NCBI GenBank assembly: GCA_963666315.2
Contig: CAXXHG010000047.1
Coordinates: 32,001-96,000, forward strand
DNA length: 64,000 nt
Direction of reading: 5' to 3'
Origin: Candidatus Binatia bacterium
Lineage (GTDB): Bacteria > Desulfobacterota > Binatia > Bin18
Below the pieces are notes generated by a model. The model saw only the letters and a program-made list of their open reading frames with translations. It had not been told where the DNA came from and ran no database searches. Below, in pieces: positions 13,000 to 18,531 of this stretch. Position 1 is the first letter of the stretch; each line of letters begins with the position of its first letter. The translations under genes and the position numbers were made by a program.

Positions 13000-15165
13000 T
13001 CACCTGCATGGGCCGTGCGCACGATGATAGTCGGTCACGAGACAGAGGGCGCGCGCTGCCCGCTCGTGTGTGGGCATGGTAGCGATCCTACGTGCATGAA
13101 ATTGAGAACGCGCTTCAAGGAGTTCCGCTTCGCGGGCAAAAGGTTGGAGTACAACGAAAAAGGGTTTGGCTGAACGTGCCGCAAAACCACTCAGAGTATC
13201 TAACAAAGAGGTGAGTATCTCAGGTCGCGCTTGCCATTGTCCGGCAACCAAACCGGCCCCGGTATCCATAACTATAGCGTCAATATTGGGATCACGATCA
13301 AGGATGGACAGGAGTCGAGCCAGGGTGTCTGTCATCTGGCCCATGCCGATGGTATGGCCGGAGTCGAGTGGATTACGAAAACTACCGCCTATCACACTAA
13401 AGAACGAAGAGAGTTCTTTGTAGGACGTGTCGCTGAGGAGGGGGACGCGCAGGCCCGCGTGCTCAAACGCATCCGTCATAGTCACCGACGGCCCGCCGGT
13501 CATGGCAACCAGGCCGACCCCATCTCCGGTTGTGGGGTTTACAAACTGCAGGAGCTTGATGACGTCGAGCAGTTCATCAAAACTGCCGGCGGGAATCGCG
13601 CCGGCCTGACGGACCATAGCGTTCCACACTGCAGCGGGGACTGCCAGCGAGCCCGTGTGGGATGAGATCGCCCGCTGGCCGGCTTCGCTCTGCCCGCCTT
13701 TCCAAACCACAACAGGCTTTTTGGGCGTGACCTGTCGCAGCAAAGAGAAAAAACGGCGGCCTGCGCGTATGCCTTCGAGATACATGCCAATGATCCGGGT
13801 CTCTTCGTCATGGGCGAGATAATCGAGGTAATCACTCGCGTCGAGGACTGCGGCATTCCCAAAGCTGACAGCTTTACTAATCTTGAGTCCGTGGTTGGGG
13901 GCGGCCAGGCTAAAGGTGATGGTATGCGTACCGCTCTGACCAATAAAGCCGACCGTGCCGGGCTCGCCGGCCGGCAAGTCTGGATAATTGCGTAACCCGA
14001 TCTTGGGATTATAGAGTCCCATACAGTTCGGGCCGATGAGGGCGAGTCCGGCTTCCTGCGCTGTCTGGGTGACCAGCTGTTCCAGGCGTTGCCCCTCTTC
14101 ATCTTTTACTTCAGAGAAACCGGAGGTAAAGAGCATCACGCCAGAGACCTTTTTGGCTGCACAGTCGGCTACTATCCGAGGCGCAATCTGGCGTGGGACT
14201 GCAGTCATGACATAGTCAATGTCTTCCGGGATGGCATCCAAGCTTGGATAATTATCGATCCCTAAAGCCGTGATGCCGGGGATTTCACGCTCATCGATCT
14301 GTACCGAATAGACCTTGCCTTGGAAGGTGCTCTGGCTGCGCAGCCACAGGTAATTCATCGCGCGTTTATCGCCAATTACGGCAACCGCTTTGGGGTTAAA
14401 CGCCCGGTCCAACGAGGCCCGCGTTGTTGCAGAGAGCGGACGAGGAGCAGCCAGCGGCCCTGTAGAACGAATAACGACCCGCGCATCAACGGCGAGGCAG
14501 CCGTCGGCATAGGCGAAAATGGGATTAAGGTCGAGTTCCTGAACATCGGGCTGGGCTTCGGCCAAGGCCGAAAGCGCGAGCAGAGTCTGTTCCAAGGCGG
14601 TGAGGTCAACGGCGGCTTGGCCACGATGTCCGGTTAACGACGGGAGTCCGGTGACCTCACGAATCATTGTACGGGCATCGTATTGGTTGAGTGGAACTAA
14701 ACGAAAGGCGACATCCTTGAGAACCTCTACATGTACACCGCCCAAGCCGAACATCACGAGTGGGCCGAACTGTGCATCAGTCGTCAGACCGATGATGACT
14801 TCGACCCCAGGCTGGGCCATGGGCTGAACGGATACACCGTCGAGGATCGCGTTGGGTTGCGCTTTTTGCACGCTCTGCGTGATTGCAGCAAATCCGTCGC
14901 GGACCACATCCTCTGAAGTCAGATTCAGTTGAACACCGCCCACATCGCTCTTATGCGCAACGTCAGGTGAGCAGACTTTGAGCGCCACAGGGAACCCCAC
15001 GTCGCGGGCTATCGATATCGCCTCTTCTGCCGTCCGCGCCAACTCCGTGCGCACAACGGATATGCCTGCCGCTTGAACGAGCGCCTTCGCTTCGACTTCG
15101 GTGAGCAAGGTGCGACCCCGAGCCTTTGTCTGTTGAATGAGCGCGTATACGTCGGTGTTGGCCAT
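13000..15165 (-). CDS. ADP-forming acetate/acyl-CoA ligase, fused beta(ATP-grasp)-alpha(CoA-binding) order
   Basis: HKSDVGGV, FGPLVMFGLGG, ELDLNP, then GPNCMG, QSG, SFGN, SHTGSLA (phospho-His motif). Confidence 0.92.
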   Translation of the reverse strand: MANTDVYALIQQTKARGRTLLTEVEAKALVQAAGISVVRTELARTAEEAISIARDVGFPVALKVCSPDVAHKSDVGGVQLNLTSEDVVRDGFAAITQSVQKAQPNAILDGVSVQPMAQPGVEVIIGLTTDAQFGPLVMFGLGGVHVEVLKDVAFRLVPLNQYDARTMIREVTGLPSLTGHRGQAAVDLTALEQTLLALSALAEAQPDVQELDLNPIFAYADGCLAVDARVVIRSTGPLAAPRPLSATTRASLDRAFNPKAVAVIGDKRAMNYLWLRSQSTFQGKVYSVQIDEREIPGITALGIDNYPSLDAIPEDIDYVMTAVPRQIAPRIVADCAAKKVSGVMLFTSGFSEVKDEEGQRLEQLVTQTAQEAGLALIGPNCMGLYNPKIGLRNYPDLPAGEPGTVGFIGQSGTHTITFSLAAPNHGLKISKAVSFGNAAVLDASDYLDYLAHDEETRIIGMYLEGIRAGRRFFSLLRQVTPKKPVVVWKGGQSEAGQRAISSHTGSLAVPAAVWNAMVRQAGAIPAGSFDELLDVIKLLQFVNPTTGDGVGLVAMTGGPSVTMTDAFEHAGLRVPLLSDTSYKELSSFFSVIGGSFRNPLDSGHTIGMGQMTDTLARLLSILDRDPNIDAIVMDTGAGLVAGQWQARPEILTSLLDTLSGFAARSAKPFFVVLQPFAREAELLEARSQFHARRIATMPTHERAARALCLVTDYHRAHGPCR

Positions 15166-15237: not shown

Positions 15238-15423
15238 GTTGAGATGTTTGGTTGCGCTCAACATGACACCGTGAAACCGTTATTTGGATAGCCTCGTAGA
15301 GAGAGAACGGGGCCAGAGTACTCTGTCAGGGGTCACGTGAGAGGTCTGTCATGCTGAGCCGGCGCCCTCCAACTGCGCTCAGGACGAAGAGATTCTTCGT
15401 CGCATGGCTCCTCAGAATGGCAC
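15238..15423. repeat. Degenerate REP/BIME-like repeats (gtcatgctgag...gagattcttcg...ctcagaatg family)
   Basis: gagatgtttggttgcgctcaacatgac and gtcatgctgagc...gagattcttcgtcgc...ctcagaatggca. Related to 47397-47493 and 51043-51097. Confidence 0.6.
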
Positions 15424-15441
15424 GTATCGAAAGTGGCGACG

Positions 15442-16116
15442 CTATGTTAATTTTTGCTCGACCTGTTTCCGCAAGGCGTCGATTTCGTCACGCAAGGTTT
15501 GGAGCTGCGTAGCGAGTGTCCCCTCGACCGCTTCTTGAACAAACTTCTCAATATATTTGCCCTGCATATCGCCTTCGATATTGACCCGATCGCCAGGTTT
15601 TCTGCGATGCAGTGTGGTGACTTCGTGGGTGTGGGGAATAATCGCGCAGGTAAATTCCGTGGGCTTGCAGTGAAACACCGTCAAGCTGATACCATCCACT
15701 GCCACTGAGCCTTTTTCTACAAGATAGCGGCTTAATTCGGTCGGAATAACAAAGGTATAAAGAAACGAATCGCCTTCCGGCTGGATGGATTGGACCTGGC
15801 CGACTCCATCAACATGCCCGAATACCAGATGGCCCGACAGCCGGTCATCAAGACGGAGCGAACGTTCCAGGTTGACGTTATCGCCGATGTGTAAGTCACC
15901 CAAATTGGTACGCCGCAGTGACTCAGCTGATACATCAAAGCTCAGTTCACCCTCGCCTGTGCGCGTCACCGTGAGACAGGTGCCGTTGGTGCAGATGCTC
16001 TCGCCTATGCTGACTTCTTGGCCCGGAATACTCGCTCGCAGTGTCAGACGTACACCCTCGACGATAGTGTCAATCTTAGTGATCGTCCCTGTGGTTTCGA
16101 TAACGCCACTAAACAT
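15442..16116 (-). CDS. ribE: Riboflavin synthase alpha chain
   Basis: MFSGVIE (MFTG-like), ESICTNGTCLTV, VNLERSL, GHLVFGHVDG, KGSVAVDGISLTV, IIPHT. Confidence 0.96.
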   Translation of the reverse strand: MFSGVIETTGTITKIDTIVEGVRLTLRASIPGQEVSIGESICTNGTCLTVTRTGEGELSFDVSAESLRRTNLGDLHIGDNVNLERSLRLDDRLSGHLVFGHVDGVGQVQSIQPEGDSFLYTFVIPTELSRYLVEKGSVAVDGISLTVFHCKPTEFTCAIIPHTHEVTTLHRRKPGDRVNIEGDMQGKYIEKFVQEAVEGTLATQLQTLRDEIDALRKQVEQKLT

Positions 16117-16124
16117 AATGCCTC

Positions 16125-16220
16125 GGAGGGATTGGGGGCTGGGGGAAAGATTCAGGTAAGAAAAGCTTAACGGCCCCTCCTTTTTATCAGACCCCTAATC
16201 CCTATTCCCCAGCCCCTTTT
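16125..16220. repeat. Heptamer tandem arms forming an inverted repeat
   Basis: gggattgggggctggggga ... cccctaatccctattccccagcccc. Confidence 0.5.
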
Positions 16221-16221
16221 C

Positions 16222-16830
16222 CTAACCTGCAGCTTGGACGCTAGGTCGTTCTTTGAGCCGGCTGAGCCATGCTTCAAGTTTAGGGTGCGGGATTTCAACC
16301 TTCAGCGTGGGAAAGAGTAGAGCCCAGGAAACATACGGAATGTCCGCCATGGTAAACGTTGAGTCGAGCAGATAGTCGTTATTTCCCAGCTCGTTGGCAA
16401 TGTGATTAAAACAGGCATGCAGGTCTGCCGCTGCAGTGTTGACGACTTCCTGGTCAGCCGTAACGCCTTGCATGGGTTTGAGCAGCAGCTCTCCGACCAG
16501 CGTTGTAACTGCGCTTTCATAGGGATTATCGCCGTAATGCATCAGAACCCGTGCACGCGCCCGCTGTCCCGAATCTGCGGGGAGCAGCGCTGGGTCTGGG
16601 TAGGCGTCGTTCAAATATTCCATGATGACGGTGGACTCGTAGACTGTTGTTCCGTTGTCTTGCAGTGCTGGAACTTTTCCGTACGGATTGATAGCCAAAT
16701 ACTCCGGCGTTTTCTGCTCGCCCTTGGTGATATCAATACTGATTTTTTCGTACTGGAGGCCTTTCTCTGCGAGCACGATGCGGACCTTGCGTACTCGTGG
16801 CGATAGAGGGAAATCATACAGCTTCATCAT
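16222..16830 (-). CDS. Glutathione S-transferase
   Basis: SPRVRKVRI, EYLAINPYGKVPAL, YESTVIMEYL, FTMADI. Confidence 0.93.
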   Translation of the reverse strand: MMKLYDFPLSPRVRKVRIVLAEKGLQYEKISIDITKGEQKTPEYLAINPYGKVPALQDNGTTVYESTVIMEYLNDAYPDPALLPADSGQRARARVLMHYGDNPYESAVTTLVGELLLKPMQGVTADQEVVNTAAADLHACFNHIANELGNNDYLLDSTFTMADIPYVSWALLFPTLKVEIPHPKLEAWLSRLKERPSVQAAG

Positions 16831-16985
16831 TCGGTGTCCTCCAATGACGGCCCTTGGTTCGCTTTTTCTTGTTCCTTTTTCTTGAGTTTTTCGAGCAGCT
16901 CGCGATCTCGTTTGGCAAAGTATTGATCTTCGTCAGCTTTGCCCTTGTCCCGAATTTTATTGCTGAGGTGGTCCTTATCGTCCAT
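16827..16985 (-). CDS. 52-aa IF1/IATP-like helical protein (internal start inside the PGPGW ORF)
   Basis: AGGAG 7 nt upstream of ATG 16985. MDDKDHLSNKIRDKGKADEDQYFAKRDRELLEKLKKK resembles the IF1 inhibitory motif AEEERYF...EQLAALK. Confidence 0.6.
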   Translation of the reverse strand: MDDKDHLSNKIRDKGKADEDQYFAKRDRELLEKLKKKEQEKANQGPSLEDTE

Positions 16986-17261
16986 CAGTTTACTCCTGCT
17001 ACCCTGCTGCTCCTGCTGTTTTTTTGACTTTAGACGGTTCATAAGACGGTTCATAAAATCCTGGGCCTTTTGTTTCAGAAAAATGTGCCACCTGACTGCC
17101 CATTTGAAATCTCGACTGAGAATCCCAAAACTCAAAACAACCAGCACAATGCCCGGACCAGGAACGCCAGGCAGGCTGAGAAAGAGGCCGGCAAGGAGGA
17201 GTAGGAATCCAGCGCCGATCCGGCATATGCGCCAGAGCTGACCGCGTGCTGTACGCAGCAT
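16827..17261 (-). CDS. PGPGW-family small membrane protein, read in frame into the IF1-like domain
   Basis: GFLLLLAGLFLSLPGVPGPGIVLVVLSFGILSRDFKWA. Confidence 0.75.
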   Translation of the reverse strand: MLRTARGQLWRICRIGAGFLLLLAGLFLSLPGVPGPGIVLVVLSFGILSRDFKWAVRWHIFLKQKAQDFMNRLMNRLKSKKQQEQQGSRSKLMDDKDHLSNKIRDKGKADEDQYFAKRDRELLEKLKKKEQEKANQGPSLEDTE

Positions 17262-17294
17262 ATTCAGTCAACCTCAGAGTCGGGTCGAGACAGG

Positions 17295-17630
17295 CTAGAG
17301 GTCGTCAAGAATTTTCCCACTGCGTGCTTTATCCACCGTCTCATCAAATTGTGAGCCGAGATCAACACCCATTTCTTTGGCCCGTTTTTTTGCCCACAGG
17401 CCAACGTTGCGAGAGTCGCGATAAAATGATTCATCCCGCGGAGCACCGGTGTCAAAGGCATTGAGCCGCGCAGCTTCGCCTTGGTGGTATGCAAAACGCG
17501 ATAACAGACGGGTCAAGCGACGACGTTTACAGGACTGACACCGGGGAGACGTTTCAACGTCCGCGCGCTTCATAAAGAGCAGACTTTGCTGCCTCCCACA
17601 CGCTTTACAGTAGTATTCGTAGATCGGCAT
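17295..17630 (-). CDS. FmdB-family zinc-ribbon protein
   Basis: MPIYEYYCKACG...CQSC...RLLSRF. Confidence 0.88.
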   Translation of the reverse strand: MPIYEYYCKACGRQQSLLFMKRADVETSPRCQSCKRRRLTRLLSRFAYHQGEAARLNAFDTGAPRDESFYRDSRNVGLWAKKRAKEMGVDLGSQFDETVDKARSGKILDDL

Positions 17631-17748
17631 GGTACACACACGGCACTCATTTTCCCCTATCACACCTTCTCCAGAGGTGCTATAGAGAAAACGTCTCTCA
17701 CCTTTCTTAAGAAGTGGACGCAGCTGCTGAGGGTCGCGGAGATAGACT

Positions 17749-18531
17749 ATGCGAGTGAGGGAATCCCTGAGCTGGGTCAGGAGAATGCGCTACCTCGACG
17801 GCGACCAACAGTTTCCACATTTCCCCTGGATGAATTTGGCTCTGGTTGGGATCAATCTGGGCTGTTTCGCCTATGAACTCAGTCTCGGGCCAGCGCTGCA
17901 GCCTTTCCTGACAACCTATGGCTGGATCCCGGAGCAATTTTCTCGCGCCCTCACTCATGGACACATCCCAGTCCTCAGCCCGCTTCTAGTCAGTACCTTC
18001 CTGCACGGTGGCTGGCTTCATTTGCTGGGTAATTTGGTGTGTTTGCTCATCCTTGGGGGAGATGTAGAGCAGCGGCTGGGTGCTGTTCGATACCTGGGCT
18101 TGTATATATGTGGCAGTCTGGTTGCCTTATTGAGCCAGACGGCTGTCGCTCCGTTCTCACCCATGCCGATGATAGGCTCTAGCGGGGCTATTGCCGCAGT
18201 GGCGGGCACCTACTGCATATTCTTTTTTACGCTACAGGACTTTCGAGTTACCCCGCGCCTCTTGTCTGGGCGCATAGAGCGGATCCCTGCCCTGCTTTTC
18301 CTGGTTGGGTGGTTTCTCTTTCATCTGCTTGCCGGTGTCTATGCGCATGCCGTTGATATGGCGCCCTCGTCGTTCTTCGCCCGCGTCGCCTGGGGAGCCC
18401 ATGTAGGCGGTTTCCTGGGTGGCATGCTCTTAGGCCCGCTGCTGTTGGTGCATCAGGCCCGCCGGCGTCGTGGCCCCGTTTTCGGTGACTCACCGCTTGT
18501 GTTTGGTCGACCGAAGTTCCTCCTCCGCTAA
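17749..18531 (+). CDS. Rhomboid intramembrane serine protease
   Basis: FLHGGWLHLLGN, catalytic GSSG and AHVGGF. Confidence 0.92.
   Translation: MRVRESLSWVRRMRYLDGDQQFPHFPWMNLALVGINLGCFAYELSLGPALQPFLTTYGWIPEQFSRALTHGHIPVLSPLLVSTFLHGGWLHLLGNLVCLLILGGDVEQRLGAVRYLGLYICGSLVALLSQTAVAPFSPMPMIGSSGAIAAVAGTYCIFFFTLQDFRVTPRLLSGRIERIPALLFLVGWFLFHLLAGVYAHAVDMAPSSFFARVAWGAHVGGFLGGMLLGPLLLVHQARRRRGPVFGDSPLVFGRPKFLLR

Follow-up and report, generated by a model that had tools for sequence, protein, structure and literature searches.

Does an open reading frame (ORF) that reads as a membrane hairpin joined to a helix resembling the mitochondrial ATP synthase inhibitor IF1 represent a new bacterial protein, and if so, what would its helix bind? 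The ORF in question encodes 144 amino acids (aa) and lies on the minus strand of a stretch of 64,000 nucleotides (nt) from a Candidatus Binatia bacterium (contig CAXXHG010000047.1, positions 32,001 to 96,000). This whole stretch is referred to as the window, and coordinates given without a locus prefix are positions within it. An earlier reading of the same letters (the original prediction) had proposed that the ORF conceals an IF1-like peptide nested behind a PGPGW membrane domain. We find that two genes, which form a conserved and translationally coupled pair, have been fused in frame in this ORF at the level of the strain, and that the second gene of the pair to all appearances belongs to a large, unnamed family of N-terminal helix modules; the gene anatomy and the family membership are both, in our judgement, close to certain. 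The likeness of the helix to IF1 recurs across searches yet stays below threshold, and the F1 head of the ATP synthase is discussed here as a tentative target.

A hairpin gene and a helix gene joined in one strain

The division of the ORF into two modules and the presence of an internal start, both described in the original prediction, were borne out. The ORF translates as quoted there, and its residues 17-65 can be assigned to the PGPGW family by a PF09656 score of 37.5 bits, over a Pfam cut-off of 23.3 bits, together with an LPGVPGPG turn motif that is read in the ORF. A linker rich in lysine and glutamine connects this hairpin to the helix module. An AGGAG site (16997-16993) stands 7 nt ahead of the ATG at 16985-16983, which is Met93 of the ORF, and the 52-aa peptide read from this ATG is as it had been written; after its helix it has a short acidic tail and no histidine. 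No zinc ribbon was found in the 144-aa ORF, either by reading the sequence or with Pfam (PF13453). In an AlphaFold2 model of the 144-aa protein, built from 36 aligned sequences with a mean predicted local distance difference test (pLDDT) score of 78, helices span residues 3-28, 36-50 and 53-135, the first two being the PGPGW hairpin, and the pLDDT reaches ~93 over the Y-F...L-L-E-K-L stretch that forms the IF1-like core. A scan of 15300-18000 for promoters and terminators gave counts that were not above those in shuffled sequences.

Among 24 other genomes of the same genus searched for the tail ORF, five (G020, G009, G024, G010 and G003) carry it as a separate ORF of 49-57 aa, and the two modules, whose separate encoding in relatives had been suggested as a check, are there two distinct genes. 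In these unfused relatives the PGPGW hairpin gene encodes 88-92 aa and overlaps the small gene, whose start sits inside the PGPGW 3' end in a different frame. The same AGGAG site is found 5' of the separate small gene in relatives, and in L003-L005 the stop of the small gene overlaps the start of the glutathione S-transferase (GST) gene. A search with the whole 144-aa protein returned 46 PGPGW orthologues of 82-92 aa that have no tail; a second fused form, P0002, is 135 aa long and 66% identical to the 144-aa protein. One relative has P0297 (243 aa), in which the orthologous GST carries the module as an in-frame N-terminal fusion, and the small gene is accordingly found joined to either of its neighbours, PGPGW or GST, in different strains.

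The description of the 52-aa peptide as hidden and nested stands as far as the in-frame internal start is concerned, but the peptide derives from an ancestral stand-alone gene that was fused through an 8-nt insertion. Alignment with L003-L005 shows that ~8 extra bases near 16995 set the PGPGW frame and the small-gene frame in register, and a 12-nt duplication (17032-17055) is missing from three relatives and from a contig of run X4. Contigs of 336 nt in runs X1 and X2, drawn from two studies of which one is perhaps the window's own source sample, are identical to the window over 16947-17282 with the 8 nt present. Run X4 belongs to a third study, and its 1049-nt contig has neither the 8 nor the 12 bases and is thus of the unfused form. 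The fusion is therefore real at the level of DNA, and it varies between strains. An assembly artefact as the source of the fused ORF is rejected, as the fused sequence occurs in contigs of two studies. A contig of a relative in the RNA run X15 spans 16852-17000 and was not used as evidence of expression, because an RNA library can hold DNA. The small gene is under purifying selection: between G010 and G003 it differs by 15 synonymous and 6 non-synonymous changes (omega 0.04), and between the window and G009 by 4 synonymous and 0 non-synonymous changes.

Whether the fusion itself matters to the cell is a separate question, and the odds we assign to it are not additive with those given below for the target of the helix. 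The odds seem to us about even that the fusion arose recently in one strain as a mutation that is neutral or slightly harmful and has no role of its own; the cell would then still rely on the 52-aa product of the internal start, or would have lost the function. In keeping with such a mutation, the close strains at 92-93% identity (P0003, P0004 and the X4 contig) are unfused, both the 8-nt and the 12-nt indels are located in a slippage-prone CAG/GAG repeat, and the fused cluster holds 1 member sequence, found on 2 contigs. The Shine-Dalgarno (SD) site and ATG of the small gene are also intact, and because of this a free 52-aa product from the internal start is possible in the fused strain. Speaking for a role of the fused form, the independent P0002 fusion and the GST fusion P0297 show that tethered forms are tolerated, and in a pair that is otherwise conserved the covalent link could be functional.

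An unnamed helix family and its likeness to IF1

The peptide is no isolated case but one member of a large, unnamed family. In a single-sequence search with the 144-aa protein, its tail matched the N-termini of zf-TFIIB proteins (P0049-P0053) and of a universal stress protein (USP), and nine loci were retrieved with the 52-aa query. A profile (A1) constructed from 18 module sequences, comprising the window and its relatives, returned 403 clusters at E<=1e-3, of which 71 reach E<=1e-10; the window peptide itself scores E 9.2e-22 against A1, a value that is partly circular as the peptide is the first row of the profile. In the small cytoplasmic protein encoded by the second gene, the part that does the work is this module, a helix of ~40 residues with the consensus D-E-K-D-R-L-G-D-K-L-R-D-K-E-K-A-E-E-D-x-Y-F-A-x-R-D-R-E-L-L-E-K-L-K, and across 268 family members residue E19 is invariant and A24, F23, D5 and K4 are near-invariant. 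It begins within 10 residues of the N-terminus in 134 of the 150 representatives listed and in 114 of the 118 longer matches, and most of the visible late-start exceptions have a methionine right before the module, which suggests over-extended gene calls.

The typical carrier is a protein of ~110 aa in which the module is followed by a zf-TFIIB zinc ribbon and then by a basic amphipathic tail. PF13453 is present in 113 of the 120 best longer module matches, and a domain scan of 60 representatives, chosen from the 150 and mainly the longer ones, found PF13453 in 29, Usp in 8 and both in one, with odd and probably chimeric partner domains in three. A shortened module is also joined to a cpYpsA SLOG domain (PF12694, E 1e-56 to 1e-59) in L051:4458-5063, L052:5986-6576 and L053:5899-6582, the fusion being supported by Pfam in L051 and L052 and by eye only in L053. 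These module-cpYpsA genes (Chromatiaceae and Thiohalocapsa records) lie just upstream of an Mrp-type cation/proton antiporter operon. The basic amphipathic tail, of the E-G-W-L-x-R-F-x-R-R type, ends 99 of the 118 longer matches, is kept together with the module in a few ribbon-less proteins, and may be a membrane-targeting helix. In the ribbon proteins the C-terminus R-E-N-E-G-W-L-x-R-F-x-R-R is conserved (e.g. L024:1807-2136). A model of the full-length L024 member has a helix at residues 4-51, the ribbon and a terminal helix, with a predicted template modelling score of 0.35, which is too low to say with confidence where the N-terminal helix lies with respect to the ribbon.

Pfam and NCBIfam hold no named family for the module, and a search of the ESM Atlas returned unnamed clusters only. 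The ribbon of P0074 matches the solved zf-TFIIB example 8yoz_A (E 2.2e-7), and a further Protein Data Bank (PDB) chain, 7dtl_A ('PSK', 91 aa), aligns with the module over 44 residues at E 0.037-0.042 and looks IF1-like by eye. Our literature search found no paper on the zf-TFIIB/PF13453 module proteins and nothing relevant on 8YOZ or 7DTL. Within the phylum, the module was present in 9 of 201 sampled genomes, mostly of the window's class.

By these comparisons, the small gene of the window is a ribbon-less copy of this N-terminal helix module. In G025, a genome of the same order but of another family, a full-length module-ribbon-tail gene (109 aa) stands between PGPGW and GST and overlaps the stop of PGPGW; the small gene of the window is therefore a descendant shortened at this place, and a recent insertion of the small gene at the locus is rejected for the same reason. 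No PF13453 match over the cut-off was found in any of the five relatives that have the small gene (completeness 65-97%) or in the window's own genome (92% complete). The five other members of the genus that were tested all have PF13453, on a module gene sited elsewhere, and a pattern search found no module ORF at 16 other PGPGW loci of the genus. As read from these genes, the sub-clade of the window keeps only the helix and the acidic tail, the ribbon having been lost in place.

To what extent does the helix resemble IF1? The Pfam IATP profile (PF04568), which has a gathering cut-off of 25 bits, matches the 52-aa peptide at E 9.2e-4 and 20.1 bits over profile positions 54-88, and the whole 144-aa ORF at 15.4 bits. 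It is the top non-ribbon Pfam match, and 17 of the 18 module members reach E<=1 (best 4.8e-4). The highest IATP score seen, 22.7 bits (E 1.3e-4), belongs to L063; this member and another (E 1.7e-3) are distant ones that come from other families of the phylum and do not have the N-terminal E-K-D-R-L-G motif. When the A1 profile was searched against 177,635 PDB sequences, the first 8 matches were all IF1 chains (E 8.2e-4 to 1.2e-2) and unrelated families began at E ~0.1; in this alignment, module positions 13-41 correspond to IF1 residues 24-52 (an offset of 11). Across these searches the likeness to IF1 is reproducible yet below threshold.

The IF1-like motif of the original prediction was supported. 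The accessible portion of a bovine IF1 study (PMC3041923) gives F22, A28, E30, Y33, F34, Q41, L42 and L45 as direct contacts, and at six of these eight positions the window peptide and the family (268 members, in an alignment of E ~1e-3) have the identical residue, which is suggestive. Specifically, the position of A28 is alanine in 81% of the family, that of E30 is glutamate in 100%, and that of Y33 is Y/F/W in 99%, with F at F34 in 91%, L/I at L42 in 95% and L/M at L45 in 96%. The F22 position is L/M in 98%, a conservative change, and the charged IF1 residues E26, R37, K39, E40 and K46 are also kept. When the contact motif is extended by the flanking charged positions, it is unique in the genome and absent from five shuffles, and what goes beyond chance is the conservation of the IF1-contact positions across the 268 family members. 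On the side of the target, the segment that follows DELSEED is retained in the organism's beta subunit, together with the arginine that pairs with IF1 E30. This segment is conserved in beta subunits generally, and therefore shows compatibility alone.

Gene neighbourhood and candidate targets of the helix

Neighbouring genes were scanned at 21 loci. In five families, namely f1 (the window sub-clade), f2 (G025), f5 (G028 and G036), f6 (G029) and f11 (G037), the gene directly upstream of the module gene encodes PGPGW at a score over the Pfam cut-off, so that the link to a membrane hairpin, originally drawn from the one ORF, extends beyond it. In L024, L025 and L031 the PGPGW gene overlaps the start of the module gene, and at least two independent PGPGW-module fusions are present. 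Because of the two fusions and the conserved adjacency, we would argue that the PGPGW hairpin and the helix protein work together. In 8 of the 21 loci (L025, L027, L030, L031, L038, L039, L058 and L049, from at least seven families), a divergent clpB gene adjoins the module gene or the PGPGW-module pair with gaps of ~150-640 nt, the module gene being located at ~1350-1900 in the clpB loci and at 3877-4200 in L049. All eight are in the window's class or in a record that bears the label Binatia, and the adjacency may reflect shared heat-shock control or just gene order inherited within one class. An ftsH gene (L063:1913-2815) lies directly downstream of the module gene in L063 (L063:1459-1782).

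We suggest the following mechanism. The helix would act in trans, held at the cytoplasmic membrane face by the PGPGW hairpin or the amphipathic tail. Its most specific candidate target would be the F1 head of the ATP synthase, with an IF1-like docking onto the beta- and alpha-subunit C-terminal domains. When the helix acts would depend on the attached domain (ribbon, USP or SLOG), and the setting would be stress, as the USP and SLOG partners and the clpB neighbourhood suggest. Where the two genes are fused, the retained SD site and ATG would yield a free 52-aa form as the active inhibitor, and the tethered 144-aa form may be inactive or only localised. We put F1 forward as the target of the helix tentatively, at well short of even confidence, and inhibition of F1 by the helix is, with the same reserve, a plausible but unproven hypothesis. 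That the widespread, unnamed bacterial family would be a counterpart, possibly the ancestor, of the IF1 helix and would serve as a brake on ATP hydrolysis by F1Fo, membrane-held by hairpin or tail and switched by its attached domains in a stress regulon that includes clpB, is a wider proposal, and we rate it as rather doubtful.

A number of observations weigh against F1 as the target. No ATP synthase gene was found among the neighbours at any of the 21 loci scanned, the organism's own atp operon and the window lie on different contigs (C43 and C47, respectively), and the neighbours that are conserved are PGPGW, Zn_ribbon_8, ribE and clpB. Every IATP score is under Pfam's 25-bit cut-off, and the Pfam check that had been proposed for the peptide thus did not place it in IATP; for the PDB matches, which involve a charged helical segment, E is no better than ~1e-3. 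The IF1 Q41 position is leucine in 87% of the family and the R35 position is alanine in 95%, both of them mismatches, and the most conserved residues of the module N-terminus (K4, D5, R6 and G8) have no IF1 counterpart. Taken alone, the contact-residue motif is not beyond chance in the genome, as it occurs 3 times in the six-frame translation (7.36 M residues) and 2, 0, 0, 0 and 0 times in five shuffles. In the fused ORF the N-terminus of the helix is tethered, unlike that of IF1 and of nearly all family members. The IF1 helix enters F1 N-terminus first (2v7q structure); in the family and in the separate small gene the helix lies near a free N-terminus, and in the fused ORF it would do so only via the internal start. 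Bovine IF1, according to the portion of PMC10949317 available, does not inhibit a bacterial F1. Lastly, the best single-sequence PDB match of the 52-aa peptide (E 0.068) is the plant protein At2g27730 (NDUP2; 6x89, 8e73), which shares the core A-x-E-x-x-Y-F...L-E-K-L with it; this eukaryotic protein is deposited as a subunit of complex I, and the helix type is not tied to F1 alone.

Several of these features could also be accounted for if the helix targets a partner other than F1, either the PGPGW hairpin itself or a stress machine such as ClpB, FtsH or DnaK, and the IF1 likeness would then reflect shared ancestry with a different use or a convergent amphipathic docking helix. We regard such a partner as possible but on the whole unlikely. 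It would fit the PGPGW-then-module pair that is kept in five families and fused at least twice, the divergent clpB beside the module gene, the ftsH gene in L063, the lack of atp linkage at the 21 loci, and the IF1-like helix that At2g27730 brings into complex I. However, the module is widespread where neither PGPGW nor clpB is a neighbour (loci of the genus lie by CBS/CoA-transferase genes, and those of Chromatiaceae by Mrp), the clpB cases all come from one class, in which inherited gene order may explain them, and the family searches revealed no sequence likeness to known ClpB, DnaK or FtsH adaptors. It is improbable that the IF1 likeness is due to chance or composition, with the helix serving for coiled-coil self-association or as the spacer of a zinc-ribbon protein whose ribbon binds nucleic acid or protein: scores that are all below threshold, a motif at chance level in one genome, weak matches to the JAKMIP coiled coil and other helical families, and PsaF, eIF2B and NDUFA13 chains at E 0.1-0.5 in the same PDB search are what it would predict, but the stand-alone forms of 49-57 aa, which are just the helix, evolve under purifying selection, so that the helix is the functional unit, the invariant E19 and near-invariant A24, F23, D5 and K4 point to a specific interface and not a generic coiled coil, IF1 matches ~50-fold better than the next unrelated family in the PDB search, and it is still the top non-ribbon match in distant members that do not have the N-terminal motif.

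The remaining genes of the locus are listed in the table along with the features of the ORF. The order of Zn_ribbon_8, GST and ribE on the same strand is as originally described, and it recurs in other families of the class: ribE lies downstream of the module gene in L024, L058 and L060, and Zn_ribbon_8 holds the same position in L024 (1196-1528) and L059 (1682-2017). The Zn_ribbon_8 protein has an unnamed, well-conserved C-terminal half (D-E-S-F-Y-x-D-S-R-N-V-G-L-W-A-K-K-R-A...), and its gene adjoins PGPGW or module genes in three families. After ribE, a 721-aa ORF on the minus strand (13000-15165) reads like an ADP-forming acetyl-CoA synthetase.

Table. Features of the fused ORF and its neighbours (window positions)
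Feature	Position	Strand	Basis
Riboflavin synthase (ribE), downstream	15442..16116	-	Lum_binding, E 2.5e-49
Glutathione S-transferase; its ATG overlaps the small-gene stop (ATGA)	16222..16830	-	Pfam
144-aa fused ORF (PGPGW hairpin, linker and helix module)	16827..17261	-	ORF and translation
Ancestral small gene, 52 codons and stop (Met93-Glu144 of the fusion)	16827..16985	-	Separate ORF in relatives
IF1-like helix core, peptide residues 11-37	16875..16955	-	IATP PF04568 match
AGGAG Shine-Dalgarno-like site, 7-nt spacer to the internal ATG	16993..16997	-	Sequence reading
~8 extra bases in a CAGCAGGAG-type repeat, exact placement ambiguous	16995..17002		Alignment with L003-L005
In-frame tandem duplication of 12 nt within the linker (MNRL MNRL)	17032..17055		Sequence reading
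PGPGW two-helix membrane hairpin, residues 17-65	17067..17213	-	PF09656, E 1.7e-9, 37.5 bits
FmdB-type Zn_ribbon_8, upstream, probable start MPIYEYYC at 17630	17295..17663	-	PF09723, 37.2 bits

Significance and comparison with known systems

In the part of a review that is available (PMC9317440), BLAST is stated to find no bacterial IF1 gene save two suspect matches, and IF1 is regarded as a eukaryotic invention; our own literature search found no description of a bacterial IF1-like helix. If the wider proposal is true, the published view of IF1-type inhibitors as absent from bacteria would be overturned. Should the module bind F1, many bacteria would hold a previously unrecognised regulator of the ATP synthase, the origin of IF1 would become directly testable, and the module would offer a natural peptide scaffold for bacterial F1. 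Without such binding, a conserved, uncharacterised pair of PGPGW and helix proteins would still stand, linked to clpB and to stress-sensor domains. The conserved pair would in addition be the first functional handle on the PGPGW family. To this picture the window contributes the PGPGW pairing and fusions, the loss of the ribbon in place and the clpB context.

Among known bacterial systems, the epsilon subunit's C-terminal domain is an established inhibitor of F1. The zeta subunit (DUF1476) is a four-helix-bundle protein and had no likeness to the module in any search made here. In the portions of PMC10469736 and PMC9317440 that are available, zeta is an inhibitor of alphaproteobacterial F1Fo whose N-terminus is described as mimicking IF1, and it is regarded by the authors as an analogue, not a homologue, of IF1. 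AtpTheta (atpT) of cyanobacteria is described in the accessible part of a preprint (bioRxiv 10.1101/2021.07.30.454416) as a small stand-alone protein that arrests ATP hydrolysis under low energy; it is cyanobacterial, and we saw no sequence relation between it and the module. The bacterial zf-TFIIB proteins (PF13453; 8yoz_A) are the usual carriers of the module; the PF13453 domain does not extend over the N-terminal helix, and the window protein differs from them in having no ribbon. With mitochondrial IF1 (IATP) the module shares a short N-terminal amphipathic helix, and stand-alone small forms of the module exist as well. In contrast to IF1, however, the module is bacterial, falls below the IATP cut-off and has an extra conserved N-terminal motif, E-K-D-R-L-G; in place of the His-rich coiled-coil dimerisation tail of IF1 it usually has a ribbon, USP or SLOG domain, and it pairs with a PGPGW membrane hairpin.

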